This document shows positions 11,400 through 29,845 of a stretch of DNA of 64,000 bases, piece by piece (the stretch's first letter is position 1; every line of letters starts with the position of its first letter). A program made the position numbers and the translations under genes. The stretch covers positions 32,001 to 96,000 of the forward strand of contig CAWDLW010000023.1 in the NCBI GenBank assembly GCA_963803145.1, given 5' to 3'. Source of the stretch: Methanotrichaceae archaeon. Lineage in GTDB: Archaea > Halobacteriota > Methanosarcinia > Methanotrichales > Methanotrichaceae. Below the pieces are notes generated by a model. The model ran no database searches, was not told where the DNA came from, and saw only the letters and a program-made list of their open reading frames with translations.

Positions 11400-11565
11400 T
11401 TAAAACTCAGTTTCTAAACTCTCCTGATAAAAATCAACCTTGACAGGATCTGCAGAAGCTAGCTAACGATAAAGATATTAGAGGTCTGACAGTATTGTCA
11501 CGGTGGGATATTGTTGAGGCATACCTGATTGCTGATTGATAGCGTTTTCGGGATTATCAACCTAA

Positions 11566-12744
11566 CTATATAAGTTTCTCCTTTCCAATTTTTCGACTTT
11601 TTCCAATAATTTCCGCCTCAAGCGTCGGATCAAGCTTAAAAGCATTACTGGCCGCTACTATGAATTCTTCTTTGCGACCCAATTTAGCAAATATAATTGC
11701 TTTATTTACCCATGCTATTGCATTTTTTGGATTAAGTGCAATAGCTTTTTCAAATATAACTAATGCTTTTTCATAATTCTTTAATTCAAGTAGGGCAGCT
11801 CCCATATAATTCCATACATCTACATCGTTAGGATCCAATTCTATTCCCTTGTTAGATGCTTCCAAAGCTTCCGTATGCTTGTCGATCATACTGAAGGCAA
11901 GACATAAATTTTTCCATGCATCTTTCATCTTTGGATTAATTTCAGTTGCCCTTTGAAAAGATATTATACCCTCTTCGTATTTGCCTAATGTAGCTAAGGA
12001 TGAACCTTTATTAAGCCAGGCAAGTTCATTCCCAGAATCCAACTCTATGGCTTTTTCAGAAGCTTGCAAAGCTTCAGCATGCCTATAAAGGCCACCTAAT
12101 GCAGAACTTTTGTTAGTCCAAGCTATAGAATCCCTCGGATCTAATCTAATCGCTTTTTCTGCAGCTTTTAGAGCTTCTTTTGATTTACCTAATCGTTCTA
12201 ATGAATTACTCAAATTGCTCCAAGCCATAGCATTATTAGGATCAGATTTAACTGCCGTTTTATAAGCTTCCAGAGCATCTATATCGTTTCCTGTATCACT
12301 TAGCATTGAACCCTTAATAGTCCATAGCTGGGATTCCTTCGGGTCTAATTCTATTGCTCTGCTAACAGCTTTTAAAGCTTCCTCGTTTCTACCTAACTTG
12401 GCAAGAGCAGTACCTTTATTAGCCCAGGCCATGGCATTTCTGGAATCTAATCCTATAGCTTTTTCAGAAGCCTGCAAAGCTTCAGCATGCCTACCCAGGA
12501 TACCTAAAGCATAAGCTTTTTTATCCCATTCAAATTCATCATGAGACTCCGATTTAGCGGCATTCACTGACGGGTTCAGCCCTTCTGCAATTACACCAAA
12601 TGCAGAATCCATTCTTTCTAATTCTAGCGCAAATTCTTGATTTAATTCCATAGTTTTTTTAAAAGCTTCAAGCATTTCATTATTTTTATTGAAATAGTGC
12701 GCCGATAAAGCTAATAATCCCCAAGCTATAGAGAATTTGGGATC
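11566..12744 (-). pseudogene. TPR-repeat protein, 5'-truncated by IS630
   Basis: Repeated AW.NKG..L..LG...EAL.A..KAI.LDP; the TPR frame continues upstream of the ORF-track start (IDPKFSIAW) up to the IS630 end. Confidence 0.8.
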
Positions 12745-13831
12745 TATAGTTAATCCACGTAATTTTTACCTCATAGATACCCTTAAATAATTAATATACG
12801 ATATAGCCGTTCATGGGCAGGAAACCTGTAATTGTAAGACATATCTCGAAGGTAGAATTAGATCAATTGTATAAAGATGAGAGAAACATAAGAATTAAAG
12901 AACGGCTACTAGCGATAATACATTTATACGAAGGAAAGAATGTATATATAGTAGCTGATATTCTTAAACGAAGTGAAAAGACAATAAAGAATTGGCTAAG
13001 CGATTGGAACAAACAAGGATATGATGGATTGATACCACAGAATAGAAACGGCAAAGAACCAATGATATCTTTTGATGAATGGGATAAAATTATCGAAGAG
13101 ATTGAGGACAAAGGAATGACTATAAAAGAGGTAATAAAATATGCAAAAGACACAAGAGGCGTAGAATATTCGTATAAAGGTGGTTGGAAGATTTTAAGAT
13201 CAATAAAGAAAGTCAAATATGGTAAACCATATATTAGAAATAATAAGAGGCCTGTTAATGCAGAAAGTTTTCTAAAAAAAGGATAGATTCAGTAATAACA
13301 ACAGTCAAAGAACCTATTATTGGATTCCTTGATGAAAGCTCTTTGCAACAGCGACCTAATACACGCAGGGTTTTAAACACCCATATGCTAAATTATCAAC
13401 CTGGAAAAGTTAGGTCTAGAACTGTTTTTGGGTTCATTGCATTGAATGGAAATGATGAAGTTATGGTCTCTCACTCATCCAAGAAAGAAGATTTAATGAT
13501 CTTCGCCCAAAAATTGAGAAGTAACAATATTATGAGACCAATATGTATTGTCCTAGATAATGCTAGAATACATCTAGCTAAGAAGTTTAGGGCATTAGCC
13601 CACGAACTTGATATCCATTTAATATATAACGTGCCATATTCCCCTGATTTAAATCCTATAGAGTTCGGTTGGAAGGATTTTAAAAGAGAGATATCAAAAT
13701 ATACTGATTTTGATGAAGCTATTGAGGATGCCCAAGATTGCGCTTTACAAATATTTTATTCCAATAAAGATGGATACTCTAAGTCTTGGATAAAGCAGTT
13801 TATAAGGTAAAAAGTTGGGAGAATGACTATA
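12745..13831 (+). mobile_element. IS630-family element, copy A (ORFs 12813-13286 and ~13283-13810)
   Basis: Imperfect IR TATAGTTAAT..TTTTTACC / GGTAAAAA..ATGACTATA with TA ends; HTH ORF plus DDE ORF (FLDE, LDNA, YSPDLNPIE); A7G slippery run at 13274-13281. Confidence 0.9.
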
Positions 13832-13881
13832 GTCATCCCAAACTCAGATCAGGATAAAGCTTTTGAACTGTAGCCTCTTGA

Positions 13882-13940
13882 AGCCCGCGCGGCGACTGAG
13901 CGCGCTATCGTCACCGTTAGTATTAGCCCCAGAAGGAAGT
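13882..13940. repeat. Structured dispersed repeat R1 (5'-truncated)
   Basis: AGCCCGCGCGGCGACTGAGCGCGCTATCGTCACCGTTAGTATTAGCCCCAGAAGGAAG. Confidence 0.85.
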
Positions 13941-13990
13941 GTCAGCTCTAAATACATTGGCTGGCCCAAATGTGAAGTCAAAACAGTTCC

Positions 13991-14489
13991 TTATTCTCCT
14001 GCAAGCTTCAGAACAGCTTTTCGTGTCTGCTTCGCCAGGCGAAAGCCTAATTCCTGGAGCCTATCGATAGATGGTTCAACTGCTTCCAGGTGCCCCGCAC
14101 GTTTTGCATCCAGCAGTAATCCCAGTGTACCTCTAATAGGTATTCCTTTTGCAGTGGCAATGCGCCGAGCCAGCGCATCATCCAGAAGCGGGAGGGCTTC
14201 CCGGCATTTCAAGCGCCAGCATCAGTACCTGGGATTCACCAGGTCCGAGATCTGTTATTAGGGGCTCTGCTTTTGCGCTGACAGGCACTTGGATCTTGAC
14301 CCAGCTTAGATTCTCCAGCTTTGGCAGGTCTAATCCTTTTGCGATGCCTGCATCCAGTTCAGCTCGGACGGAAGGAGGGACAATAATAGATCCAACAAGG
14401 GCTGGAAGAATCCTCAATTGACCTATCTGATGCAGATATTGCAGTGGCGATGTATTGCAGATGACCTTGGGCAGGGCTTTTTTAGGCAA
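13991..14489 (-). pseudogene. DUF3368 PIN-domain toxin, frameshifted (copy 1)
   Basis: VICNTSPL..L and LGPGES in one frame; LLDD..ARR..A...GTLGLL..AK in another. Confidence 0.8.
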
Positions 14490-14772
14490 GGCTGGTCTCC
14501 GCCTTGAGATCTTCTTCCGTCAAGCGGAAAGTGTCCACGCCATACTTTGCCAGGTTAGCCAAGAATATCGTTCGTGGAACTCCTGCCAGCTTTGCAGCTG
14601 CACCCGAGGATAATTTTCCAAGTTCAAAGAGCTTTACAGCAGCAGCTAATCTCAACTCCTTTCCGAGTTCATCCGGAGACATCTTCATCGCTAACAAGGC
14701 ATCATCCGGAACTTGCAAGACTATCTCGCTCATACGATCTAATCTCTTTTCATTGCTATTGTATTTTTGCAT
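14482..14772 (-). CDS. UPF0175-family antitoxin
   Basis: A.KLFELGKLSSGAAAKLAGV.R..FL; overlaps the DUF3368 start. Confidence 0.85.
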   Translation of the reverse strand: MQKYNSNEKRLDRMSEIVLQVPDDALLAMKMSPDELGKELRLAAAVKLFELGKLSSGAAAKLAGVPRTIFLANLAKYGVDTFRLTEEDLKAETSLA

Positions 14773-14872
14773 CTAGCTTTGTGGTTGATAGTTCATCCTT
14801 TGTTTATAATTACAGCCTGATATCCGACAAATGCAGAATAGTTTATCCTGTCTCAGTTAACCTTGTCGGCTG

Positions 14873-14965
14873 TTTCGAGAGACTTCCCCCAGCGAGGGGT
14901 TAGGGGCAGCCCGCGCGGCGATTGAGCGCGCTAGTAAACCGCTAGTGTTAGCCCCAGAAGGAAGT
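14873..14965. repeat. Structured dispersed repeat R2
   Basis: TTTCGAGAGACTTCCCCCAGCGAGGGGTTAGGGGCAGCCCGCGC...GCGCGCTAG...CTAGTGTTAGCCCCAGAAGGAAG. Confidence 0.9.
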
Positions 14966-15218
14966 ATAAGGATCTTGAATTGTCATAGGCCATAGGAAAG
15001 ATTGAAATGTGCGTTGTCTTAGGTGAACGAGCACTTTCTGAAGAAGAGATTATATAGATAGGGATTATTTATTGTATCAAAGTTATAGGCGAGGCTGTAA
15101 ATCCTAATCGAAGCATATAATTACTAAATAGTGTGCAATAAAGGCATTTGCTGAGAAAATCACATTATGGTCATTGGTGTCCACCAAACACAATGGCTCA
15201 GAGTTTAAGCGAGGCCTC

Positions 15219-15404
15219 TCAAGGATTCTCGCTTTTCTCTGATAATCTCTTTCGAAGAATAAGCCTAGCACCTTCTTCAAATACGTGTGAAATATTTCTA
15301 AATTCACCAGCAGCTACGGCCTCTTCAGCTGCTTTATACGTTTCAGGGCTTATACTAACGCTGAATTTTTTTGTGGGCATCGCTAAAAACAATGCTGCGC
15401 CCAT
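15219..15404 (-). CDS. Ribbon-helix-helix (CopG-like) regulator
   Basis: KKFSVSISPE...GEFRNISHVFEEG pattern. Confidence 0.75.
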   Translation of the reverse strand: MGAALFLAMPTKKFSVSISPETYKAAEEAVAAGEFRNISHVFEEGARLILRKRLSEKSENP

Positions 15405-15705
15405 CTAAATAGTTTTCTCACCGAGTATTACCAACAACCTTAAATAGAAATATGACCAGGTATTATTTTGGTGGACATCAATGAATGGAAAGACCCATCT
15501 AGAGGAAGCTATCCTTGTCTCTCAGATCAGGGAATCAATTGCACAGAAGTTGATTGGAAAGTATTCAACAACTTTTCTATACAGGATCGAAATTATCTGG
15601 CCCTGTTCAATATTAATCCAGATCGTTGAAAATAGTTTTCTGAATACCCTAACGACGAATGTCCTAGGCTCCTCTCAGGATATTCCAGAAGCAGAGGCGG
15701 TCTAA

Positions 15706-16284
15706 ATGCCCTCCCCAAACAATCCCGAAAGCGCCGTTCCGCTAGCAATCGATCCAGCAACCACATCCATATTATCAGAGCTGACCACATCACTAGCCGA
15801 ACTTCAGCCCCTCGCCCCCAAGATCGCCGATCTGAAAAATGAAACCCTGGAAAAAGAAGCCGCAATCCTGAAAGCAATCCTGGAGAAGCTCACGCATCTG
15901 GTGCCTCTGCTGAGCGAAGACTGCGAGCAATGTTACCGCCGTGAGATTGTCATCCTGACCGATGAGGAGAGAGTTCAGCTTGATGATTTTGGCTTTTTCA
16001 GCGAGCACAGGCTGATTCTCTACGAGAACGGCCTGCTGGTGAGGACTCACCGCTATGGCCAATCTATGGATCATGGCCAATCAATGGAAGCTTCACACGT
16101 AGGATGGGAGAACACCGATGAGGATGTGCTTACTCCTGAGGCGGCTATAATCGCATTCGGTTTCACGGCCATTTCACAGGGCTTGACAAAGGCTCTTGAA
16201 GAGGCATCATCGATGGCTGCACTCAAAGAGATGCTTGAAGAAGATGTAGCGGCTTTAACTAAGGCATTGGAGGCTCTATTATAG
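15706..16284 (+). CDS. Hypothetical protein (paralogue of 22491-23075)
   Basis: Intact ORF conserved in a second copy (CEQCYRREIVIL..HRLILYENG). Confidence 0.8.
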   Translation: MPSPNNPESAVPLAIDPATTSILSELTTSLAELQPLAPKIADLKNETLEKEAAILKAILEKLTHLVPLLSEDCEQCYRREIVILTDEERVQLDDFGFFSEHRLILYENGLLVRTHRYGQSMDHGQSMEASHVGWENTDEDVLTPEAAIIAFGFTAISQGLTKALEEASSMAALKEMLEEDVAALTKALEALL

Positions 16285-16496
16285 GCAGCTGCTGACCTGA
16301 TGGCAGGAACCACAAGCATTCGATTGCATCGAGCGAGACCGTCCATAGCTAATAGTAATTGCCTCCACTCGAAAGCTTCAAAATTTTAGCGTTCTCATAG
16401 GCCGCATCATACATCTCAGCTTGATCATATTCTCATACTTGCAAAATCATTATATGGGTTGAATGGGATAAATGGGTAAAAGAGTTGATTGAAAGG

Positions 16497-16760
16497 ATGC
16501 CGCTTGCCAAAATGGATGACCGGGGGAGGCTGCAGCTTCCCAGCGACCTAAGGCATAAAATGAAGCTCAAAGAGGGCGACGAATTTGTTGCAGAGAAGCT
16601 TGGAGAGGATACGATTCTTCTAAAGAAGATTAACATAAGAGCACTGCTGGAAGATGCAATAGAAAAGGCTAAATCCGTAGATCTTGACAAGCTGGAAAAA
16701 GAGATTGAGGAGGAAAGCAACCAGCTTGCCCGAAAGATGTACAAGGTATCTTCTAGATAA
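16497..16760 (+). CDS. AbrB/MazE/SpoVT-family antitoxin
   Basis: KMDDRGRLQLPSDLR..MKLKEGD. Confidence 0.9.
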   Translation: MPLAKMDDRGRLQLPSDLRHKMKLKEGDEFVAEKLGEDTILLKKINIRALLEDAIEKAKSVDLDKLEKEIEEESNQLARKMYKVSSR

Positions 16761-17166
16761 TACCCTCTTTATTGCCGCAGTCAAGAAGGGCTGGACTAAG
16801 AGCACTGAACTAATCTATACTCTTCTAGATAGCCCAGTGGAATTATTTGCCAATAAGCTCCTTATTTTCGAATACGAGAAATATGCCAGCGCCCTTCATA
16901 CCTATGAACTTTTAGAGCACTTGAAGAAGACTATGATTTTGGTAAATCCTTCTCAGGAAGAAGTCGATGTATGTGCAGCGTTCTTTCCTGAAAACGAGCT
17001 ATCGGATATAGTTCACGCAGCTACTTGTCTTTCAGTTGGTGCAATCCTAATCACCAATGATAACCATTTCAATAAAATTAAAGAAGCTAGGTTGATTGAG
17101 GCCTGGAGCATGACAAAGGCGATAAAGCGGCTTCTAGGAGAAGATAAGGATTATGAAGACAATTAG
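16726..17166 (+). CDS. PIN-domain (VapC-like) toxin
   Basis: YLLDNT, EYE, DIVHAA, LITNDNHF; probable TTG start after GAGGAGG. Confidence 0.85.
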   Translation: MPERCTRYLLDNTLFIAAVKKGWTKSTELIYTLLDSPVELFANKLLIFEYEKYASALHTYELLEHLKKTMILVNPSQEEVDVCAAFFPENELSDIVHAATCLSVGAILITNDNHFNKIKEARLIEAWSMTKAIKRLLGEDKDYEDN

Positions 17167-17188
17167 CACATGATAGTTCTTGAAACAT

Positions 17189-17479
17189 TTAGGCAAGGCT
17201 TGCCTCCGCCTTGAGATCTTCTTCCGTTAGGCGAAAAGTATCCACGCCATAGTTTGCCAGGCTGGCCAGGAATATCGTTCGTGGAACTCCTGCAAGCTTT
17301 GCAGCCGCACCGGAGGATAGTTTTCCAAGTTCAAAGAGCTTTGCAGCTGCAGCTAATCTCAACTCCTTTCCGAACTCGTCTGGAGACATCTTCATAGCCA
17401 ATAAGGCATCATCCGGAACTTGTAAGACTATCTCGCTCATACGATCTAACCTCTCTTTATGGCTATTGTATTTTTGCAT
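17189..17479 (-). CDS. UPF0175-family antitoxin (orphan copy)
   Basis: Near-identical to 14482-14772 but lacks the downstream DUF3368 gene. Confidence 0.8.
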   Translation of the reverse strand: MQKYNSHKERLDRMSEIVLQVPDDALLAMKMSPDEFGKELRLAAAAKLFELGKLSSGAAAKLAGVPRTIFLASLANYGVDTFRLTEEDLKAEASLA

Positions 17480-17574
17480 ATAGCTTTGTGGTTGATAGTT
17501 CATCTTTTGTTTAACAGCCAGATATCCTACAAATACAGAACCGCCCATCAGGTCTCTGTTAACCTAATTGCCTG

Positions 17575-17668
17575 TTTCGAGAGACTTCCCCCAGCGAGGG
17601 GTTAGGGGTAGCCCGCGCAGCGACTGAGCGCGCTATCGTCACCGTTAGTATTACCCTCAGAAGGAAGT
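17575..17668. repeat. Structured dispersed repeat R3
   Basis: Matches R2, with the compensated stem change GGGGC/GCCCC to GGGGTA/TACCCT. Confidence 0.9.
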
Positions 17669-17932
17669 ATAATGCTTTTGAATTTAATAGCAGACCTAAG
17701 CACTGAACCAATTAGCACTGAACCAATTATTCCATGATCGATCGTAAGAGAAGCCCATCAGGGTGAATATAGTAAATGAATGCGGACTAAGGAAGATGAT
17801 TTGGGATTAAGTACTTAGTGAGACGGTAGCCATAAGATAATGCAATCAGATAGATCTGAGGTATATTAGTACTCTTACTGAGGCATAATAAATGCAGCAA
17901 TCTCTTCATCCCTGAAGGCAACTATAATTCCG

Positions 17933-18265
17933 ATGGATAAATTCGAAGCCCTGAGAGAAAAAGTGCTAGTTAGCTCAGGCCATACGTTAAACGCAATTGC
18001 CGTTTTCGGCTCCTTCGCCCGAGATGAAGAGACCCGAAGAGAGCGATATAGATCTAATGGTCGAGCTGAAGCCGCGAGAGCTGGCCCATGCTTGGGCTTG
18101 AAGTGTTTGGCCTGGAAGAAGAGCTGAGCCGAATCCTGGGCAGAGATGTAGAATTGGTGACAGAGCGGGCTCTTAGCCCTTATATAAAGCCGTATGCAGA
18201 GATGGATATGGTTATGCTCTATGAAGAAGGATGATTATGTATATCTTCGCCATATACTCGATTCA
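17933..18265 (+). pseudogene. Minimal nucleotidyltransferase (MNT) pseudogene plus HEPN/DUF86 N-terminal stub
   Basis: IAVFGSFAR..E...SDIDL broken by frameshifts; MKKDDYVYLRHILDS stub at 18221. Confidence 0.75.
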
Positions 18266-18422
18266 GGCTTAGAATGGGTCGACCCATTTCCATCGATTGG
18301 CGGGGCTTCGATTACGGTCTCCATAGGGCCGGTTTCGATTGTCTAAGCTCATCATCATAACAAGGTTATCATAGAACATTTTCACCTAGACTTTAAATAA
18401 TAAGAATCCATAGGTAGTATCT

Positions 18423-18605
18423 ATGTGTGAGAGTTTGGAGCGCAAGACTATAACTCCCCAACTTCCCTACGATCAGGAAGAGCCAGGTGAGGATGAGGAG
18501 ATCACCCTTGCACTTATGAAGCTCTCAGCTCTATCACTGCAGGATTTCTTAGAGAGCGAACCAGATATCTATACGGACGATGATCTTAAAGTCAGATACC
18601 GATGA
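18423..18605 (+). CDS. Small acidic antitoxin-like protein
   Basis: LS..SL.DFLE.EPDIYT..DLK tail; ATGA overlap with the MazF gene. Confidence 0.7.
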   Translation: MCESLERKTITPQLPYDQEEPGEDEEITLALMKLSALSLQDFLESEPDIYTDDDLKVRYR

Positions 18606-18949
18606 AAGGTGATATCGTCCTTGTTCCTTTCCCAAACTCCGATTTGAGTACATGGAAGCGTAGGCCAGCGTTAATCCTTTATGAAGATCTTATAGAAAAT
18701 GAGACTACAATTGCTTACGTATCATCGCGTATCCCTATAATCCCAGCTTCTAGCGATATTCTGATAACAAGAGGAACGCGGTCTTTTAATGAGTCTGGCT
18801 TAAAGTGGAACTCAGTTATAAAATTAAATAAGATAGCTGCTATTAAAACCCATTTTATTGCCGGATTGCTTGGTGTTGCGGATGAAACCTTGAAGGCTGA
18901 AGTTAATAGGGCATTGGATGCTTGCTTAAAGTTTCCAGCAAAATTGTAA
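18602..18949 (+). CDS. MazF/PemK-family toxin
   Basis: MKGDIVLVPFP.SD....KRRPALI, GLK..S.I. Confidence 0.9.
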   Translation: MKGDIVLVPFPNSDLSTWKRRPALILYEDLIENETTIAYVSSRIPIIPASSDILITRGTRSFNESGLKWNSVIKLNKIAAIKTHFIAGLLGVADETLKAEVNRALDACLKFPAKL

Positions 18950-18957
18950 GGTTCTAT

Positions 18958-19212
18958 TTAGCTCCGGGCATACTCCAGATCCACTTCCAGCTCCGTCTCT
19001 CCATAATGGCGCTTGATCTTACGATGACCTAGAAGTTCCTCGAATTGCAAGCGTGCCAAGCCACTCAGTGCTGCAGCTTTGCCGGAAGAAAGCACTCCAT
19101 GCTGGTAAAGAGCCAAAGCTAGCTCTTTGTAAAGCTCTGCTTCAACATCATCAGGGGGAACTCTGAGGGCGTTTGCTACGTCTTCGGGAATCTTCAATGT
19201 GGGGGCACCCAT
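18958..19212 (-). CDS. UPF0175-family protein
   Basis: ALALYQ.G.LSSGKAA.LSGL.R..F.ELL. Confidence 0.8.
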   Translation of the reverse strand: MGAPTLKIPEDVANALRVPPDDVEAELYKELALALYQHGVLSSGKAAALSGLARLQFEELLGHRKIKRHYGETELEVDLEYARS

Positions 19213-19397
19213 GAATTTATGCACCTCTTCATAATTCTCGCTCGGATTATTTTTTAAGCTTTGGGAACAATAATAACAAGATTGGATTCGACCTAGAGCT
19301 TTAAGTCGGATGTGACACGTAGAAGGGCGTTAAAATACGATGGAATCACCATCAATTCCGCCATAGACATAAGAATAATGAATACTGTTATTCTACT

Positions 19398-19784
19398 ATG
19401 AAAATCAAACTGACAAGTGTATTTGTAGACGACCAAGGCAAGGCTCTCAAGTTTTATACAGAGGTCTTGGGCTTTGTTAAGAAATCGGATGTTACAGCAG
19501 GGAAATACAGATGGTTAACGGTTGTTTCGCCTGAAGAGCAAGACGGTGCCCAGTTACTTCTTGAGCCTAAGGATAATCCTGCGGCAAAATCCTACCAGGA
19601 ATCTATTTTCAAGCAAGGTATTCCCGCCGCTATGTTCTTCGTTGATGATATTCAGAAAGAGTATCAGAGACTGAAGAGACTTGGAGTGAAATTCACAATG
19701 GAGCCGACAAAAACACCCGGCTCGACTATTGTCGTGTTTGATGATACCAGCGGAAACCTGATACAGTTAGCTCAGCTTGGGTAG
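19398..19784 (+). CDS. VOC/glyoxalase-bleomycin resistance family protein
   Basis: VFVDDQ.KALKFYTEVLGF ... FDDTSGNLIQL. Confidence 0.9.
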   Translation: MKIKLTSVFVDDQGKALKFYTEVLGFVKKSDVTAGKYRWLTVVSPEEQDGAQLLLEPKDNPAAKSYQESIFKQGIPAAMFFVDDIQKEYQRLKRLGVKFTMEPTKTPGSTIVVFDDTSGNLIQLAQLG

Positions 19785-19894
19785 GATTTCACAGATAACG
19801 TCAGCGTGACAAAGTTGATCCTTTGAGGGTTATCAGTTTAGGCATTGCCGCAGCCGATCTATCCTGCAAATCAAGGGACCTGGGCAACGAAGAC

Positions 19895-20127
19895 TAGACG
19901 AGATAGGAACCGATAACAAATTCATGTAGAGTATATTTCCCTTTTTCGCTTTCAAAGGGAATAATCAGGTATTTTCATTTTTCAATTCTCTCGATGTATC
20001 CTCGCTTCTCCAATCTTGTGAGCATTATTTTCAATGTGCTTTTATCAATCCGAGTCTTTTGATACATTTGGTCAATTGAAAATATCTTGCTCCCTTTTGC
20101 CATAGATTTGAGATCCTTAATAGCCAT
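19895..20127 (-). pseudogene. AbiEi-like (type IV TA antitoxin) N-terminal remnant
   Basis: Manual translation MAIKDL..IFSIDQ.../LTRLEKRGYIERIE/KYLIIP..KGKYTLHEFVIGSYLV, with frameshifts. Confidence 0.6.
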
Positions 20128-20257
20128 GCAACCCACTGTCTTGATTTTCCCCTTTAATACACCAAAGTTATCATAATGTTAATTTTGGTGTATACAAGGG
20201 GGAATCTTGTGAATTCAAATGAATATAACTCCTCTCAATCAACCTAATAGCACGCGT

Positions 20258-20349
20258 TTTCGAAACCTTCCCCCAGCGAGGGGTTAGGGGTAACCTGCCC
20301 GGCGACTGAGGGCGCTAGTAAAACCCCTAGTGTTAGCCCCGGAAGAAAT
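20258..20349. repeat. Structured dispersed repeat R4
   Basis: Matches R2, with the compensated change GCGC/GCGC to GCCC/GGGC. Confidence 0.9.
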
Positions 20350-20422
20350 TGCAAGGCTTCTAAGATATATTAGTCAGCCCAAACTCAGATCAGAATAAAG
20401 CTTTTGAACTGTAGCCGCTTGA

Positions 20423-20481
20423 AGCCAGCGCGGCGATTGAGCGCGCTATCGTCACCGTCAGTTTTAGCCCCAGAAGGAAGT
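20423..20481. repeat. Structured dispersed repeat R5 (5'-truncated, same left flank as R1)
   Basis: 20371-20481 matches 13830-13940. Confidence 0.85.
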
Positions 20482-20751
20482 TTATTGCCTTTGAATTTAA
20501 TAGCAGGCCCAAGCACTGAACTAATTTTTCCACGATCGATCGTAAGAGAAGGTCATCAATGTGAATATAGTAAATGAACGCGGACTAAGGAAGATGTTTT
20601 GGGATTGAGTACTGAGTGAGACGATAGCTATACGGTAATGCAAATTTAAGTAGATAGAATGCAAGCAGATAGATCAGAGGTATATCAGCACTCTTACTGA
20701 GGCGCAACAAATGCAGCAATTTCTTCATTCCTGAAGGCAACTATAATTCCG

Positions 20752-21062
20752 ATGGATAAATTCGAAGCCCTAAGAGAAAAAGTGCTGCCTTTGCTCAGGC
20801 CATACGTTAAACGCAATTGCCGTTTTCGGCTCCTTCGCCCGAGGTGATGAGACTCCAGAGCGATATAGATCTAATGGTTGAGCTGAAGCCGCGAGAGCAG
20901 CGCCCATGCTTGGGCTTGAAGTGGTTTGGCCTGGAAGAAGAGTTGAGCCGAATACTGGGCAGAGATGTAGAATTGGTGACAGAGGGCGCTCTTAGCCCTT
21001 ATATAAAACCGTATTCAGAGAGGAATATGGTTATGCTCTATGAAGAGCCTCAAAGCTTTTAG
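20752..21062 (+). pseudogene. MNT antitoxin, frameshifted (paralogue of 17933)
   Basis: MDKFEALREKVLPLLRPYVKR / IAVFGSFARGDETPESDIDL across a frameshift. Confidence 0.75.
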
Positions 21063-21168
21063 CGTTCTCATAGGCCGTATCATACAGCTCAGCCTGATCT
21101 TATTCTCATGCCCTGCAAAATCGTTATATGGGATGAATGGGTTAAATGGGTAATGGAGTGATTGAAGA

Positions 21169-21432
21169 ATGCCGCTCGCCAAAATGGATGATCGCGGGAG
21201 GTTGCAGCTTCCCAGCGATCTGAGGCATAAGATGAAGCTCAAAGAGGGCGACGAATTTGTTGCAGAGAAGCTTGGAGAGGATACGATTATCCTTAAAAAG
21301 ATTAACATAAGAGCGCTGCTTGAAGATGCGATAGAAAAGGCTAAATTCGTGGATCTTGACAAGCTGGAAAAAGAGATCGAGGAGGAGAGCAACCAGCTTG
21401 CCCGAAAGATGTACAAGGTATCTTCTAGATAA
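21169..21432 (+). CDS. AbrB-family antitoxin (copy 2)
   Basis: Near-identical to 16497-16760. Confidence 0.9.
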   Translation: MPLAKMDDRGRLQLPSDLRHKMKLKEGDEFVAEKLGEDTIILKKINIRALLEDAIEKAKFVDLDKLEKEIEEESNQLARKMYKVSSR

Positions 21433-21838
21433 CACCCTCTTTATTGCTGCTGTCAAGAAGGGATGGACTAAGAGCACTGAGCTTGTCTATGCTCTTCTAG
21501 ATAGCCCAGTAGAATTATTCGCCAATAAGCTCCTTATTTTCGAATACGAGAAATATGCCAGCGCCCTTCATACCTATGATCTCTTGAATCACTTGAAGAG
21601 GACTATGATTTTGGTCAATCCTTCTCAGGAAGAAGTCGATGCATGTGCAGCGTTCTTTCCTGAAAACGAGCTATCTGACATAGTTCACGCAGCTACTTGT
21701 CTTTCAGTTGGTGCAATCCTAATCACCAATGATAACCATTTCAATAGGATTAGAGAAGCTAGGTTGATCGAGGTCTGGAGCATGACAAAGGCGATAAAGC
21801 GGCTTTTAGAAGATGATAAAGATTTTGAAGATAGTTAA
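21398..21838 (+). CDS. PIN-domain toxin (copy 2)
   Basis: Near-identical to 16726-17166. Confidence 0.85.
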   Translation: MPERCTRYLLDNTLFIAAVKKGWTKSTELVYALLDSPVELFANKLLIFEYEKYASALHTYDLLNHLKRTMILVNPSQEEVDACAAFFPENELSDIVHAATCLSVGAILITNDNHFNRIREARLIEVWSMTKAIKRLLEDDKDFEDS

Positions 21839-21947
21839 GTATACGATTGCCCTTGAGATGATTTCTTTATCCGATACAGTTTCTTATTCTGTTATAATTC
21901 TATGAGCCAAATCGTCCATCTGCCTCAATCAACCTTATAGCATGCGT

Positions 21948-22040
21948 TTTCAAAACCTTCCCCCAGCGAGGGGTTAGGGGCAGCCCGCGCGGCGACTGAG
22001 CGCGCTAGTAAACCGCTAGTATTAGCCCCAGAAAGTAAGT
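21948..22040. repeat. Structured dispersed repeat R6
   Basis: CTTCCCCCAGCGAGGGGTTAGGGGCAGCCCGCGCGGCGACTGAGCGCGCTAGTAAACCGCTAGTATTAGCCCCAG. Confidence 0.9.
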
Positions 22041-22137
22041 ATGAGGCCCTTGAATCATTGGACCCGATATGGTTATCTTTAAGAGCGACAAAAATTTTAT
22101 TGCATCTCAACTCACCAAGAAGAGATGCAGGGTGGGC

Positions 22138-22320
22138 TTATGCCTGCCCTTTAAACTTGACACCATGCTTTTCCAAATATTCGCGTATCGCCTTCTCTGC
22201 AACCTCTGAAACTCCTCTCATTTGCCCTGTAGATTCGAAGGCGAATTTTCTCAACGCCGCGGCCACTTCTGGTGATAACGATATATTCATTTTAGTTGGC
22301 GTTTTTCTCTCAGGCTCCAT
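22138..22320 (-). CDS. Ribbon-helix-helix regulator
   Basis: KMNISLSPEV...LR ... SEVAEKAIREYLEK. Confidence 0.8.
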   Translation of the reverse strand: MEPERKTPTKMNISLSPEVAAALRKFAFESTGQMRGVSEVAEKAIREYLEKHGVKFKGQA

Positions 22321-22490
22321 GCTTGTTATATGTCTAAATCTTTAACTATTAACCTTTTATCATATTAAGCCACTTAGGAAGAAAAAGAGTTAAATATCTT
22401 ACTCTCCTATTAGGTCATTGGTGAGTTGAGATGATTGGAAGAACAATTTTTGAGAGCGGTTTAGAGACCTTAGCATCGGAGGCGGTCTAA

Positions 22491-23075
22491 ATGCCCTCCC
22501 TACTCCACCCCGAAAACTCCGTCCAGACAGCAGCCGATCCAATAGACACAATAGCGACCGATCCAGCAACCACATCCATGTTATCAGAGCTGACTGCATC
22601 ACTAGCCGAACTTTGGCCCCTCACCTTCAATATCATCGATCTGCAAAAGCAAACCCTGGAGAAAGAAGCCTCCATCCTAAAAGCAATCGTGGAGAAGGCC
22701 ACGCCTCTGGTGCCTCTGCTGTGTGAAGACTGTGAGCAATGTTACCGCCGTGAGATTGTCATCCTGGCCAGAGAGGAGAGAGTGCAGCTTGATGATTTCG
22801 GCTTTTTCAGCGAGCACAGGCTGATTCTCTACGAGAACGGCCTGCTGGCAAGAACTCATCGCTATGGCCAATCAATGAAAGATCTGAATTTTGGATGTGA
22901 GAACACCGATGAGGATGTGCTTACACCTGAGTCTGCTATAACCACATTCGGCTTCACGGCAATTTCAAAGGGCTTGATGAGGATTCTTGGAGATGCGTCA
23001 TCGATGGCTGTACTCAAAGAGGAGCTAGAAGGCAGGCTTGCGGCTTTAGCTGAGGCATTGGAGGCTCTACGATAA
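22491..23075 (+). CDS. Hypothetical protein (paralogue of 15706-16284)
   Basis: Conserved duplicate, divergent from an RHH gene as in copy 1. Confidence 0.8.
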   Translation: MPSLLHPENSVQTAADPIDTIATDPATTSMLSELTASLAELWPLTFNIIDLQKQTLEKEASILKAIVEKATPLVPLLCEDCEQCYRREIVILAREERVQLDDFGFFSEHRLILYENGLLARTHRYGQSMKDLNFGCENTDEDVLTPESAITTFGFTAISKGLMRILGDASSMAVLKEELEGRLAALAEALEALR

Positions 23076-23118
23076 AGGGATTAGCTAATCTTATTTTATT
23101 CAACCTTACAGCATATAT

Positions 23119-23211
23119 TTTCCCGAACCTTCTCCCGAAAAGGGGCTGGGGGTTGCTCGCATGGCGACTAAGCGCGCTAGAATAACCGTTAGTATTAGCC
23201 CCAGAAGAAAA
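23119..23211. repeat. Structured dispersed repeat R7 (diverged)
   Basis: CTTCTCCCGAAAAGGGGCTGGGGGTT...GCGCGCTAG...GTTAGTATTAGCCCCAGAAG. Confidence 0.8.
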
Positions 23212-23381
23212 TGCAGTCTCTCTAATTACAATGAATTTAGCCAAAAGCAAAGTTAGAGACATTCTTTTATGTATACTCTTGAATTTAAATTTCTTGAAGA
23301 ACGCTATCTTTTGCCTGTTGCTCACATGCCGGGAAGTTCCAATAGCATCAATCTGGATGAACCGGCAATGGTTCGATGCCT

Positions 23382-23880
23382 TTATTCTCCTGCAAGCTTC
23401 AGAACAGCTTCTCGTGTCTGCTTCGCCAGGCGGAAGCCTAATTCCTGGAGCCTATCAATAGATGGTTCAACTGCTTCCAGGTGCCCCGCACGTTTTGCAT
23501 CCAGCAATAATCCCAGTGTACCTCTAATAGGTATTACTTTTGCAGTGGCAATGCGCCGAGCCAGTGCATCATCCAGAAGCGGGAGGGCTTCCCGGCATTT
23601 CAAGCGCCAGCATCAGTACCTGGGATTCACCAGGTCCGAGATCTGTTATTAGGGGCTCTGCTTTTGCGCTGACAGGCACTTGGATCTTGACCCAGCTTAG
23701 ATTCTCCAGCTTTGGCAGGTCTAATCCTTTTGCGATGCCTGCATCCAGTTCAGCTCGGACGGAAGGAGGGACAATAATAGATCCAACAAGGGCTGGAAGA
23801 ATCCTCAATTGACCTATCTGATGCAGATATTGCAGTGGCGATGTATTGCAGATGACCTTGGGCAGGGCTTTTTTAGGCAA
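23382..23880 (-). pseudogene. DUF3368 PIN toxin, frameshifted (copy 2)
   Basis: Near-identical to 13991-14489, with the same frameshift. Confidence 0.8.
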
Positions 23881-24163
23881 GGCTTGCCTCCGCCTTGAGA
23901 TCTTCTTCCGTTAGGCGAAAAGTATCCACGCCATAGTTCGCCAGGCTGGCCAGGAATACCGTTCGTGGAACTCCTGCCAGCTTTGCAGCTGCACCGGAGG
24001 ATAATTTTCCAAGTTCAAAGAGCTTTACAGCAGCAGCTAATCTCAACTCCTTTCCGAGTTCATCCGGAGACATCTTCATCGCTAACAAGGCATCATCCGG
24101 AACTTGCAAGACTATCTCGCTCATACGATCTAATCTTTCGTTATGGCTATTGTATTTTTGCAT
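23873..24163 (-). CDS. UPF0175-family antitoxin (copy 3)
   Basis: Near-identical to 14482-14772. Confidence 0.85.
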   Translation of the reverse strand: MQKYNSHNERLDRMSEIVLQVPDDALLAMKMSPDELGKELRLAAAVKLFELGKLSSGAAAKLAGVPRTVFLASLANYGVDTFRLTEEDLKAEASLA

Positions 24164-24262
24164 ATAGCTTTGTGGTTGATAGTTCATCTTTTGTTTATAA
24201 TTACAGCCAGATATCATGCAAGTGCATAACCGCTCATTCAGTTACGTCAACCTTATCGCCTG

Positions 24263-24355
24263 TTTCGAGGGACTTCCCCGTAGAGGGGTTAGGGGCAGCC
24301 CGCGCGGCTTCTCTCGCGCGCTGGAATAGCCGTTAGTGTTAGCCCCAGAAGAAGG
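24263..24355. repeat. Structured dispersed repeat R8
   Basis: CTTCCCCGTAGAGGGGTTAGGGGCAGCCCGCGCGG..CGCGCG...GTTAGCCCCAGAAG. Confidence 0.9.
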
Positions 24356-24440
24356 TGAAGCTTTTGAATTATTTCATTCAGCTCCAAAAACAAAGTAAGG
24401 ACGATTCTCCAATACACTCTTGTGATCTCTTAGCCTGTGC

Positions 24441-24686
24441 TCATACTACCTTGAATGCCACGCCCACCGCCTGGAACTCTGATGTATCCTGGCGCTCAAG
24501 CTTCGATTTGATCCCCTCGAATCTCCTTACGGTCTCCTGAGAGTACAATCTCTCGCCGCACCTGAGACATACCTCGGCACATACTTTCAGGACCGCTGTA
24601 TTTACGCCGCCCCGAATTACCTTTTCTACTTCCTTCTCCACTAGACTACCGCCACAAACAGGGCATCTCTCGAAAGACGTCATCAT
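24441..24686 (-). CDS. YgiT-type zinc-finger protein (MqsA-like antitoxin domain)
   Basis: CPVCGG ... AEVCLRCGERLYS. Confidence 0.85.
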   Translation of the reverse strand: MMTSFERCPVCGGSLVEKEVEKVIRGGVNTAVLKVCAEVCLRCGERLYSQETVRRFEGIKSKLERQDTSEFQAVGVAFKVV

Positions 24687-24864
24687 TCAACCCTATAGAT
24701 CCTCCTCCAGCTCCATTTCTCAATAATGGCACTAGATCTTATGATGACCTACATGAATCGCTCCGAATACTTTTCACAGGCCGGAGTATATAAAGTCAAT
24801 CATTTCAAGATTATACGCAATTTGCGCAAAGTCTTTTATCATCTTCAATAGATAATCTGATAAT

Positions 24865-25059
24865 ATGGAGACAAAGGAATTGATTCATCGAGAGATCGAG
24901 GCTTTCCCTGAGCCCTATCTCGAAGAAGTGCTAGACTTTATACACTTTTTAAAGGATAAGGCAATGAAAAAGAGAATGGAAGCTGCGATTCTAAGTGAGT
25001 CAGTTCTTGCCAGGGATTGGCTGAGTCCAGAGGAGGATGAAGCTTGGAAAAATTTATAA
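24865..25059 (+). CDS. DUF2281-like antitoxin
   Basis: EIE.FPE..LEEVLDFI.FL and SE..LA.DW.SPEEDEAW. Confidence 0.8.
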   Translation: METKELIHREIEAFPEPYLEEVLDFIHFLKDKAMKKRMEAAILSESVLARDWLSPEEDEAWKNL

Positions 25060-25376
25060 AAGGAGATATAGTTGTACTTCCCTTTCCGTTCTCAGACTTG
25101 ACTGAGGCGAAAAGGCGTCCTGCTCTAGTACTCGCAGAACTTGATGGGACCGATAGAATTCTTTGCCAGATAACGAGCCAGAATTTCGAAGACAGATACG
25201 CTGTTTCAATAGATGAATTAGACTTCGAAGAGGGCTCCCTTAGAAAAAGAAGCAATGTTAGACCGAATCGAATATTCACTGCGGATAGCAAGATAATTCT
25301 GTATAAAGCAGGCCATATCAAATCCAGTAAGATAGATGAAGTCGTGAATAGAATAATCGAAATCTTGACCCGCTAA
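25044..25376 (+). CDS. MazF/PemK-family toxin
   Basis: KGDIVVLPFPFSD...KRRPALV, ILCQITS. Confidence 0.9.
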   Translation: MEKFIKGDIVVLPFPFSDLTEAKRRPALVLAELDGTDRILCQITSQNFEDRYAVSIDELDFEEGSLRKRSNVRPNRIFTADSKIILYKAGHIKSSKIDEVVNRIIEILTR

Positions 25377-25451
25377 TCTGCATTGCTGCTTTCCACGATC
25401 TCAATATCCTCATTCGCTATCTACATGTCCCACTCAACCTCGTAACCTGCA

Positions 25452-25546
25452 TTTCGAAAATCCTCCCCCAGCGAGGGGTTAGGGGCAGCCTGCGCGGGCG
25501 TTGGAGCGCGCTATCGTCACCGTTAGTTTTAGCCCCAGAAGGAAGT
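25452..25546. repeat. Structured dispersed repeat R9
   Basis: CCTCCCCCAGCGAGGGGTTAGGGGCAGCC..GCGC..GCGCG...TTAGCCCCAGAAGGAAG. Confidence 0.9.
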
Positions 25547-25593
25547 GTTAGCTTTTAAATTATGTAATTAGCCATAATCCAAATCTGAGCGGA

Positions 25594-26037
25594 CTATGTA
25601 TCTGCTTGTATCTTCAGAAATTCCTCTATTGCATCTATAAACTGATCAAAATCGTCGATATTATCTATCAGGATGGAAAATGCAACTTTATCATCGATTT
25701 TTCCATACCTGTGAACAACTATATTTCTGAATCCCTTCATCTTTCGGATCTTACCACTAATCTCCTCAGTCAAAATACCTTTTTTTGCCAGGCTCTCCAC
25801 TATTCCTTCCTCACTCTCGGGCATCTCCAATCTCAGATCAGAGTTAATGATGGCGCAAATATCGATCACATTCTCGACTGCAAATTCTGCCCTCTTGTAG
25901 ATACCATCTTTAACTAGCCCTAGCCTTGAAAACTCCTCGAAGCTCTGTGGAAGATGAGATCTTACCAACTCTATGCTATCCTCTATCTCAGTCATCTTAT
26001 CTCTGATGAGATCAACTCTGAGGCCCTTCTTTCTCAT
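25594..26037 (-). CDS. HEPN (DUF86/HepT) RNase toxin
   Basis: RX4-6H motif in GFRNIVVHRY. Confidence 0.9.
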   Translation of the reverse strand: MRKKGLRVDLIRDKMTEIEDSIELVRSHLPQSFEEFSRLGLVKDGIYKRAEFAVENVIDICAIINSDLRLEMPESEEGIVESLAKKGILTEEISGKIRKMKGFRNIVVHRYGKIDDKVAFSILIDNIDDFDQFIDAIEEFLKIQADT

Positions 26038-26048
26038 TCTCCCCCCGC

Positions 26049-26438
26049 TTACCTTATTGCCTCCACACCAATATAATCATAATACCTGGGCTTGAAGGCT
26101 TCAAAATCCTTAATGGTCTCATATGCCTTATCGTACAGGAACTGCTTGCTATCGCAATACAGGATCTTTCCCTGCAGAACATCCCTCCTGAGATAAACGG
26201 GAAGCTGCTGGAAGATCTTGATGTCATAGATATCTTCGAACAGCTCCGAAAGAACCCTAAGCCTGAATTCGGAGGCATCCTCGCCCTCATAGTAAACACT
26301 GAGATCGATATCTGAGCCTTCTCTTATCCTGTCCTGTGAGGCTGAGCCGTAAAGAATTATAAAGCGAACTTTCTCGCGGCCGAGTTCTTTGATCTTCTGG
26401 ACGGCATGCTCAATTTTCTCGGATAGAAGTTGGCGAAT
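26049..26438 (-). CDS. MNT (MntA-like) antitoxin, missed by the ORF track; start codon uncertain (ATT?)
   Basis: Manual translation IILYGSAS..RIREGSDIDL ... FQQLPVYLRRDVLQGK; frame is open and lies directly upstream of HEPN. Confidence 0.75.
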   Translation of the reverse strand: MRQLLSEKIEHAVQKIKELGREKVRFIILYGSASQDRIREGSDIDLSVYYEGEDASEFRLRVLSELFEDIYDIKIFQQLPVYLRRDVLQGKILYCDSKQFLYDKAYETIKDFEAFKPRYYDYIGVEAIR

Positions 26439-26751
26439 AGGACGTCCCTCTCAGATTTATCGTTGTATGCAGTTCATAAGCTAGTTTAGCAAATTATTTG
26501 TGGCTATAGGTTTAAAGATATTTCGCCAATCGTCCAAAAAAATAGGCGAATTAGGAAGAACTTAAGGGTTAAAGTTTCAATAAAATTTTTAATGTCTCAA
26601 AAGTGCATTACTGAGTTTGGAGATAATCCATCAGCAGCGAGCAAGATTTCTTTGACAGGTCTAATCCTTTTGCAATGCCGGTATCCAGTTCAGCTTGGAC
26701 GGATGGAGGAACAATAATGGAATCAACAAGAGCTGGAAGAATCCTCAATTG

Positions 26752-27035
26752 AGGAAGTTCTTATAGCATGTTCAAGCTTCATCCTGGGTTGAAGAAACGC
26801 TATTGTGGGTGGAAATCTATGGCAAAACGGCAAATTCTTTCGATCTGTTGGAAATGTGACTGCTGATACAATCAAACACTATATTAAGGAATCTCAAGGG
26901 AAACAGAAAGCAGAGTTTCAATCGCGCAGATCAAGAGAATATGGACAACGAAGACTGGACGATTTCTGAATTCAAAAAAACTGGTCGTGCGGCCCGAAGC
27001 ATACCCCACCCTTTAGGGAGGTGGCCGCACGCAGT
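26752..27035 (+). mobile_element. IS200/IS605 remnant: TnpA (Y1) C-terminus plus end hairpin
   Basis: SYSMFKLHPGLKKRY / GGNLWQNGKFFRSVGNVTADTIKHYIKESQ; hairpin CGTGCGGCC..CCCCACCCTTTAGGGAGG..GGCCGCACG. Confidence 0.75.
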
Positions 27036-28759: not shown

Positions 28760-29845
28760 TATAGTCAATTTTGCATCTAACTTCCTAATAGAAAACCTTA
28801 ATATTCAAGGCGTTAAATTATAGCTGATGGGAAGAAAACCTAAAGTCATAAAACATATCTCAAAAGAAGAGCTAGAAGACCTATATAGAAAAGAAAAAGA
28901 TCCAAGAATTAAAGAGAGGCTGTTAGCGATAATTCATCTTTATGAAAAGAAAAACATTTACGAAGTTCAGGACATTTTGAAAAAGAGCGATCGAACTATC
29001 AAGGATTGGTTAAGTAGATGGAATAATAAAGGCTATGAAGGACTAATACCAGGAAGCGGAGGTGGCGTTGAACCGAGGATACCTTCTCAGGAATGGGATA
29101 ATATTATTAAAGAGATTGAAGGTAAAGGGATGACTATCAGAGATGTTATGGTTTATGTCAAGACTACGAGAGGTGTAGACTATTCTTATAACACGACGTG
29201 GAAAATTTTAAGAGTGGATAAAGGAGTTAAGTATGGGAAACCCTATATTAAAAATGAGAAAAGACCAGAATATGCGGAAAAAATTTTAAAAAAGAATAGA
29301 TTGCGTGTTATCAACAGTCACTGATCCCATTGTGGGTTTTCTAGATGAGAGTTCATTGCAACAAAATCCCAATAAAAGACGAGTGATAAACACTCCTGTG
29401 ATAAAATATGATCAAGGCAGAAAGAGATCTAAGACTATATTCGGTTTTATGGCTATAAATGGCAACGATGCAGTCATGCTATCTGATTCGTCTAAGGCAG
29501 AAGATATGATTAGTTTTATCCAAGTAATAAGAACAGCTAACATTATGAAGCCAATATGTCTCCTGCTCGATAATGCAAAGATACATCTGGCAAAAACAGT
29601 TAGGATATTAGCTCAAGAATTGGATATCCACTTTATCTACTTGCCCCCATATTCGCCAGATTTGAATCCTATTGAGTTTGGATGGAAAGATTTGAAAAGA
29701 GATTTGAGTAAATTCCTTAATTTTGATGAGGCTATCGAAATGAGTGAAGAGTGTGCCCTAAAAATTATATATTTCAGGAAAGATGGATACTCTAGGCATG
29801 TGATAAATAAGGTTTTTAGTGAAGAAAGTTAGGAGATTGACTATA
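28760..29845 (+). mobile_element. IS630-family element, copy B (ORFs 28827-29324 and 29305-29832)
   Basis: IR TATAGTCAAT / ATTGACTATA; A6G slippery site near 29290; FLDESS, LDNAKIH, YSPDLNPIE. Confidence 0.9.

Follow-up and report, generated by a model that had tools for sequence, protein, structure and literature searches.

The window analysed here, a 64,000-nt stretch of the genome of a Methanotrichaceae archaeon (C23:32001-96000, that is, contig CAWDLW010000023.1 of assembly GCA_963803145.1; 4.13 Mb in 51 contigs), contains a toxin-antitoxin island with nine co-oriented copies, R1 to R9, of a structured repeat. This repeat belongs to an undescribed, lineage-restricted repeat family of Methanotrichaceae. 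Our preferred interpretation, which we hold with about even confidence, is that it is a DNA-level recombination joint, integron-like in its outcome without being an integron. We prefer it because it explains together the one-way arrays of copies, the homology of their flanks on one side only, the modules that carry genes on either strand, and the lone copies found elsewhere in the genome.

The flanks of the element assort independently of one another. Among 68 full copies in this genome, 29 pairs share an upstream flank and 9 a downstream flank, where sharing means at least 100 nt, and no pair shares both; many of the upstream-flank pairs come from a single gene family, the 192-amino-acid (aa) open reading frame (ORF) described below. 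When the loci of two sister genomes are added (92 copies), the counts become 41 pairs upstream, 29 downstream and 2 both, the last two being cross-species orthologues of two lone loci on contigs C34 and C26. One copy in a sister genome (locus L056) is a left/right chimera of R9 and R2. It matches R9 in its upstream module (96% over 298 nt) and variable spacer, ACCTGCATTTC, and R2 in the P5 hairpin, the right module and the downstream module (87% over 290 nt). The module with MqsA-like and MazF genes is thus followed by HepT here and by a 60-aa/192-aa module in the sister, where the joint is a chimeric element. In its one-sided flank homology and the L056 chimera the element behaves like a joint at which cargo modules recombine, which supports one of the options, a recombination site, that an earlier note on this DNA offered from the sequence alone.

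According to a likelihood change-point test, upstream homology ends at model positions 30-76 in 10 of 12 groups, and downstream homology begins at 151-170 in all 5 groups. Because there is little signal in the conserved core, the crossover is only bracketed between the spacer and P5, an interval within which the common start of the half copies, AGCC|CGCGC, falls. The impression, gained by eye, that upstream homology runs through the core to ..CCCCAGAAG was not upheld by this test and holds for one adjacent pair on contig C8 only. Metagenome contigs aligned to the window have many joints inside repeats; since the repeat occurs in many copies and the aligned runs include other strains, these joints cannot be taken for products of excision.

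Motif scan, alignment and covariance model all agree with the earlier note in finding nine copies on the + strand of the island (13882-25546), seven of them full and two half. The 3' box GTTAGCCCCAGAAG, at up to 3 mismatches, has nine + strand matches inside 13882-25546; elsewhere in the window it has four matches with 2-3 mismatches, at 8562, 34929 and 38185 (+) and 47423 (-), and there are additional - strand matches at 22266 and 255. A repeat search of 13000-27000 recovers the element as families D2, D8 and D9, and the nine-way alignment of R1-R9 has a mean column identity of 70%. With a covariance model built from the seven full copies, these score 112-139 bits and the two half copies 47-53 bits. 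The full copies, each with left module, core helices P1-P5 and right module, are R2 (14829..14989 in extended profile coordinates, 138.6 bits), R3 (17531..17693, 134.8 bits), R4 (20219..20366, 135.9 bits), R6 (21905..22056, 137.9 bits), R7 (23065..23233, 119.1 bits), R8 (24227..24387, 112.4 bits, with a deviant P4 loop, GGCTTCTCTC) and R9 (25421..25571, 130.2 bits). R1 (13840..13954, 52.7 bits, model positions 52-113) and R5 (20381..20497, 47.2 bits) are right halves, in agreement with the earlier note, which found them to lack the left part: their profile matches in nhmmer begin at model position 52 of 113, and R1 starts at the P3/P4 junction, ..AGCC|CGCGC. R5 follows a CCAAAC..GCTTGAAGCC spacer module, so that R4 and R5 form a composite of full copy, spacer and half copy, an arrangement that recurs elsewhere in the genome.

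The unit is longer than the 90-110 nt originally proposed. When 75 full copies are aligned with their flanks, conservation spans about 150 nt, starting at an optional upstream hairpin plus TTCAACCTTATAGC and ending at GGCTTTTGAATTAT. From the 5' end, the parts are the optional hairpin (GGGAAT-N10-ATTCCC), TTCAACCTTATAGC, a variable spacer of 10-14 nt and TTTTCCAAAAC; then the core, CTTCCCCC-loop-GGGG TTA GGGGC AGCC CGCGC-GGCGAYTGA-GCGCG CTAG-loop-TTAG TRTTA GCCCC AGAAG; and finally the right module, GTAGGCTTTTGAATTAT. Matching between the two ends is limited to TTCAA/TTGAA. In about half of the copies the sequence continues as a CCAAAC...CTCTTGAA module, after which a half copy often comes, and 17 of the 118 genomic matches share a truncation point, beginning at model position 52-57 (..AGCC|CGCGC). 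No Pfam-supported ORF overlaps a copy in the annotated arrays. Three identical copies (C17:254207, C38:47114 and C9:4312) are cut after GGGGTGAGGG by another repeated sequence (TGTTATTTTTTCAAGCC...), which may be a second mobile element targeting the repeat.

Pairing in P2 to P4 is maintained through compensating changes. On the + strand the element can fold into a P2 hairpin, followed by P3 enclosing the P4 and P5 hairpins. In alignments that were fitted to the covariance model, and are to that extent biased toward the structure, 61 distinct sequences from within the genus have 92.5% of cells paired against 89.0% in shuffles (0/500) and 32-59% in slid controls, and 30 distinct sequences from across genera have changes on both sides in 17 of 22 pairs (0/500), among them every one of the five P4 pairs. 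Support is strongest for the P4 helix, with one pair occurring as GC:32, CG:18 and AU:2 and another as CG:49 and UA:11. Clean swaps are also seen in individual divergent copies (P2 as CCCACA-GAA-TGTGGG, for example), and the compensated changes noticed earlier in R3 (GGGGT/ACCCT) and R4 (TGCCC/GGGCG) are visible in the alignments. These results confirm the claim of a structured element with compensated pairs. Wobble cells in P2-P5 number 79 G.T against 28 A.C, which are not independent events, and from this excess we take the + strand to be the folding strand. The motif GGCGAYTGA occurs 71 times inside elements and never outside them, and loop sequences are nearly invariant across genera. Some copies bear uncompensated stem damage, RNAalifold on loose alignments recovers only P2 and part of P4, per-copy mapping by minimum free energy (MFE) is uninformative, and an alternative pairing, GGGGTTAG/TTAGCCCC, is equally possible on sequence grounds. 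A long, attC-like outer stem was rejected after a duplex test of the variable arms, in which no covariation or partner specificity appeared: the values are -3.72 kcal/mol for cognate arms and -3.87 kcal/mol for non-cognate arms, and 1470 of 2000 permutations are as good.

An nhmmer profile of the seven full copies has 118 matches in the genome at E<1e-3, 78 of them full length. Besides the window array (R1-R9, +, 9 matches) there are three long one-strand arrays, at C15:5110-21038 (11 matches), C8:432071-440373 (8 matches) and C8:484571-502661 (12 matches), and one-way arrays occur in a sister genome as well. The view that copies always point one way stands for these four largest arrays and fails for two smaller clusters with mixed strands (--+++ and +++-). 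A further 45 or so sites, lone or paired, lie over many contigs, so that the element is a dispersed repeat rather than a punctuation mark peculiar to the island. Its orientation is independent of the genes around it, as first claimed: the nearest upstream ORF is on the same strand in 29 cases and on the opposite strand in 33, the corresponding downstream counts are 25 and 37, and the ORFs on either side are varied, 93 of 124 remaining singletons when clustered. Of the findings that the earlier note had set against its own reading, the genome-wide scatter was observed; a match to a known insertion sequence (IS) end or MITE (miniature transposable element with inverted repeats) was not, and covariation is significant.

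Beyond this genome, a DNA search found the element in 7 of 41 relatives, including 6 of 24 genomes of the same family and none of 16 from two other families of the class, and the covariance model found it in 9 of 61 Methanotrichaceae genomes, representing 5 of 16 genera, with 38 and 57 scored matches in two genomes of the same genus. Among 185,579 species genomes, exact matches to the 31-nt core pattern number 33 stretches, all of them in four Methanotrichaceae archaeon assemblies; viral contigs have 0, and BLAST of R6 against 72,556 plasmids gave no match. The impression that the element resembles no described family holds, in that Rfam has no match to it, and a search of the open-access literature for this repeat in Methanothrix or Methanosaeta returned nothing relevant. 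Genera other than this one keep the 5' half of the core nearly intact and have a 3' half of different types (three 3'-part types). The immediate neighbours there are mostly housekeeping genes, among them isocitrate dehydrogenase, SAICAR synthetase, thermosome, eRF1 and HisG, with few toxin-antitoxin genes, and the toxin-antitoxin link is therefore a property of the islands of this genus, not of the element. The spacer between topoisomerase and eRF1 contains elements in two other genera; here it has a tRNA-like sequence and no element.

If the element is a joint, it would be a crossover site where gene modules are, or were, exchanged, each copy's left part moving together with the module upstream of it and its right part with the module downstream. 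The exchange itself would fall within the conserved core, most probably close to the point where the half copies start, the P3/P4 junction. A circle made of one module and one element could recombine with any resident copy, leaving the module flanked by two direct, chimeric copies, and repeated integration of such circles would build up arrays that, like R1-R9, run in one direction; a lone copy among housekeeping genes would be a docking site that no module has occupied. Either a dedicated recombinase or general homologous recombination could be the catalyst. We infer the circle-integration route, the exact crossover point, the single-strand recognition and the catalyst. In a more specific version, which we consider rather unlikely, the arrays would be a non-integron archaeal cassette system in which a putative recombinase recognises the core folded on the + strand, using the invariant P4 loop as a handle, cuts at the P3/P4 junction, excises circles and inserts them at any copy, lone copies serving as landing pads for toxin-antitoxin and defence modules.

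Several observations weigh against a recombination joint. The change-point result, taken alone, is also compatible with replacement of the element as a whole unit, and the 17 half copies may share common ancestry in one event. Recent activity was not seen: among 65 full copies, with a mean pairwise identity of 75% and a mean best match of 85%, no pair is at least 95% alike, the best being 94%. Copies persist at orthologous loci between species that are 83-89% alike, and module exchange is not evident in other genera, where the neighbours are housekeeping genes. The genome's 13 tyrosine-recombinase, 5 Y1-transposase and 17 TnpB matches are not consistently beside arrays. Fold stability relative to shuffles is ordinary (+ strand MFE z = -0.41, -1.00 and +0.62, with the - strand similar), and orientation relative to local GC skew, which may not report replication direction here, divides the clusters 31/32, 34/29 and 36/27.

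The persistence of copies was followed at four lone loci by comparison with two sister species. At the C26 locus the element is at the orthologous place in both; at the C34 locus it is so in one, and the contig of the other breaks there. At the C17 and C12 loci there is a remnant only, in one sister species, and the deletion ends differ between the loci. The first of these empty-site comparisons had looked like a clean insertion 3' of the left module, a candidate rejected once the second locus proved to have a different deletion end; given the different ends, both loci are better read as decayed remnants. Orthologous copies are conserved at about the level of their coding flanks. Genome of origin does not determine how copies group: for a sister-genome copy, the best match is 0.842 in its own genome and 0.842 here. 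Given the absence of near-identical copies and the orthologous placement in sister species, the element family is old and mostly static.

The uniform direction of copies within arrays that hold genes on both strands, unrelated as it is to ORF orientation, also weighs against the element being a structured RNA, either a multi-copy small RNA or a cis-acting motif on neighbouring transcripts, an alternative that we regard as possible but doubtful. The compensated P2-P4 pairs, the preponderance of G.U over A.C (79 vs 28) in favour of the + strand, the near-invariant loops across genera, and orthologous copies kept as well as their coding flanks are all what such an RNA would have, and the P4 hairpin loop (GGC-GA-CU-GA), which may resemble a K-turn/L7Ae site, might be a K-loop-type protein-binding site. 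Transcription signals are harder to find. A BRE/TATA (B-recognition element and TATA box) position weight matrix derived from 38 tRNA upstream regions of this genome (consensus GCGAAAGGTTTATATA), which covers tRNA-type promoters only, scores left modules like random windows (median 2.1 vs 2.0, with 5% above the random 95th percentile) and its best positions are scattered, so that a tRNA-type promoter in the element was rejected; nor is there a consistent oligo-T run in the right module. Rfam has 0 matches in the window, the lone match around R6 at E<=10 being mir-1781 (17 bits, - strand, outside the core), and a tRNA scan of the window found none. MFE z-scores are not significant, and individual copies carry uncompensated stem damage. 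The results on ORF orientation, promoter, Rfam and GC skew lower the RNA-gene reading without removing it. The high copy number and the modular, truncated and composite forms would also suit a self-mobile, non-autonomous element moved by a transposase in trans, MITE-like or with an end like those of HUH/IS200-IS605 elements or Helitrons, with module shuffling as a by-product of homologous recombination. A 3' part that differs between genera would be expected of an element co-evolving with its enzyme, and the strand-specific folding and the remnants at 2 of the 4 loci compared with sister species fit as well. We nevertheless judge this unlikely: there are no terminal inverted repeats beyond TTCAA/TTGAA, no near-identical copies, no GC-skew bias and no copies in viral contigs or plasmids, and no target duplication was seen at the compared loci, a weak test given that these were remnants. 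No autonomous parent with the element's ends was found in a search that was not exhaustive, and Y1 transposase genes are not beside elements.

Two further explanations address the arrays themselves. Co-oriented copies between foreign-looking modules could be scars of attachment sites, the direct repeats that remain when integrative elements insert in tandem at a single host RNA gene. We consider this very unlikely, as the window has no tRNA or Rfam family to serve as parent, the modules have no integrase, and some 45 lone copies are spread over many contigs. Still less probable is a canonical integron, or a cluster of attC sites lacking an integron integrase (CALIN), with the element as attC. 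One-way arrays with toxin-antitoxin cargo do recall one, and both TTCAAC on the left and TTGAAT on the right agree with the attC R''/R' boxes at 6 of 7 positions. However, integron integrase TIGR02249 has no match above its 265-bit cut-off in any of 5 genomes (best 60.8 bits), the outer stem is without covariation, and inside there is a conserved sequence with several helices in place of a single imperfect hairpin. In 10 of 12 groups upstream homology ends before the core, which indicates that the site does not travel with the upstream gene. The earlier judgement that this is not a canonical attC was therefore sound: there is no IntI, no single hairpin with complementary boxes, and the site is not part of the upstream cassette.

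Other enzymes, too, have no consistent link to the arrays. No recombinase was found at the ends of the arrays of this genome or of five sister-genome stretches. A link to RAYT or HUH transposases, which had been suggested, is not borne out by the five PF01797 matches, which consist of three identical copies of an IS and two pieces of one broken gene and none of which is beside an element. Insertion sequences in the arrays (IS110, IS630, TnpB, IS1-like) interrupt or adjoin the element and do not share its ends. One of them, a 1.54-kb IS with a 419-aa IS110-family (DEDD) transposase and ends CCCATGA...TCATGGG (L078:10325-11863 on contig C8; 8 copies), occupies an identical position in the element (..TAGTTT | ..AGCCCC) in 7 of its 8 copies, with the same orientation relative to the element each time; about 240 nt of non-coding DNA precede its transposase gene, the expected location of a bridge RNA. 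Members of the IS110 family have been reported, in the accounts given by 10.1101/2025.01.17.633520 and 10.64898/2026.03.19.712850, to insert into repetitive extragenic palindromic (REP) sequences or into one conserved intergenic sequence.

Among known systems there is a close likeness to integron cassette arrays and CALINs, including the archaeal integrons of Ghaly et al. (2022, PMC9668308): one-way arrays, a folded strand-specific site, and swappable modules rich in toxin-antitoxin genes, with orphan arrays lacking an adjacent integrase common; the main text of that paper has 0 occurrences of Methanothrix or Methanosaeta. The present arrays differ in having no IntI, a conserved multi-helix site instead of a variable single hairpin, multi-gene modules on both strands, many lone copies between housekeeping genes, and a site that does not travel with the upstream gene. 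Plasmid dif (pdif) sites are 28-bp Xer sites in alternating orientation, whereas the element here is about 150 nt, direct and folded. As far as the descriptions in PMC13141974 and PMC6449649 go, the pdif modules of Acinetobacter plasmids are similar in being accessory modules bounded by short recombination sites and shuffled between replicons, and pdif sites too are targeted by a specialised IS family, according to what PMC10132070 outlines. REP/BIME, BOX and comparable intergenic repeats of bacteria are similarly dispersed, modular and foldable, and are IS110-family targets according to 10.1101/2025.01.17.633520 and 10.64898/2026.03.19.712850; the element described here is much longer, multi-helix and archaeal, no RAYT-type gene is flanked by its copies, and its arrays are one-way, not alternating.

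Pfam annotation agrees that the cargo of the window is rich in toxin-antitoxin genes: UPF0175/DUF3368, MazE-like/PIN, two MazF, an MqsA-like ORF, HepT, a glyoxalase-fold gene and two pairs of a 60-aa and a 192/194-aa ORF. Abutting R1 on its left is an IS630-type transposase in two ORFs (helix-turn-helix and DDE_3; 12813..13810, +). DUF3368, a PIN-like gene in two overlapping ORFs, and UPF0175 lie between R1 and R2 (13991..14772, -; PF11848 3.5e-14, PF03683 1.2e-25). Between R2 and R3 there follow a 60-aa ORF (-) and a 192-aa ORF (+) with no Pfam family (15219..16284), a MazE/AbrB-like antitoxin with a PIN toxin (16485..17166, +; PF04014 at 9.3e-4, below its cut-off, and PF01850 at 1.5e-5), and, directly left of R3, a UPF0175 gene (17189..17548, -) that is homologous at the DNA level to those lying left of R2 and R8 (87% over ~500 nt). 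The next module (18423..19784, both strands) has a 60-aa ORF and MazF/PemK (+), UPF0175 (-) and a glyoxalase-fold protein (+) (PF02452 1.3e-11, PF03683 6.8e-24, PF00903 3.8e-23).

Three modules in the right part of the array are paralogues of those in the left: a nucleotidyltransferase fragment, MazE-like ORF and PIN (20817..21838, +; 91% over 794 nt to 16374-17165), a 60-aa ORF (-) with a 194-aa ORF (+) (22138..23075; 82% over 536 nt to 15219-16284), and DUF3368 in two ORFs with UPF0175 (23382..24217, -; 94% over 972 nt to 13991-14772). An MqsA-like zinc-ribbon ORF (-) with DUF2281 and MazF/PemK (+) identified by Pfam (24441..25376) precedes R9, and the same module stands between two elements in a sister species (D-homology 87-89%, U-homology 96%); a HepT-like toxin gene (25594..26037, -; PF01934 7.2e-28) lies just right of R9. 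DUF3368 is split into two overlapping ORFs of 73 and 103 aa in both paralogues (13991-14489 and 23382-23880, -), so the split is shared and no one-off error. The 192-194-aa protein, which has no Pfam family, has 8 copies among the element-flanking ORFs, 7 of which end just upstream of a same-strand element; in the window its two ORFs (15706-16284 and 22491-23075, +) are paired with divergent 60-aa ORFs (15219-15404 and 22138-22320, -), also without a Pfam match, and the two may form an undescribed toxin-antitoxin-like pair. A 103-nt piece of a DUF3368 gene (26650-26752; 89% to 14319-14421) shows that the island reaches past R9. Just before the array, 3949-13810 is low in GC (0.35-0.40) and dense in mobile genes, with an IS66-family transposase, two DDE_Tnp_1 transposases around a KAP-family NTPase, a TPR protein and the IS630-type transposase, of which there is a second copy at 28827-29832.

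The contents of the other three arrays of this genome and of the five sister-genome stretches are toxin-antitoxin genes, genes with an acylphosphatase domain, fragments of genes and IS of various kinds. Several arrays of two genomes (L077, L078, L079 and L090) repeatedly have, as modules, proteins of 174-294 aa that begin with an acylphosphatase domain at the N-terminus. On contig C8 (L077:4314-7250), three successive elements are each followed by the start of an opposite-strand NAD-epimerase gene, as fragments of 63 and 118 aa and a gene of 309 aa, a pattern that looks like serial duplication of a gene start plus element. In sister genome G002 (L093:4690-19795), elements and small modules form a 12-kb run in one direction that has a cas6b gene on one side and a gene for a cas3-like helicase on the other, which gives the appearance of an insertion into a CRISPR-Cas locus.

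The Methanotrichaceae are major methanogens that use acetate, and to our knowledge almost nothing is known of how their accessory genome is assembled. The repeat, with its covariance model and its invariant 31-nt box, is a searchable marker for the joints between toxin-antitoxin and defence modules. To judge from its insertion points, the IS110-type element that homes to one point of the repeat would be a natural example of bridge-RNA targeting in archaea. Should the element instead be an RNA, few structured RNA families in any archaeon would match it in abundance. If it is a recombination joint served by a dedicated enzyme, the arrays would represent a second, independent route to gene-cassette arrays beside the integron, and the lone copies would offer natural docking sites for genetic tools in organisms that lack them.

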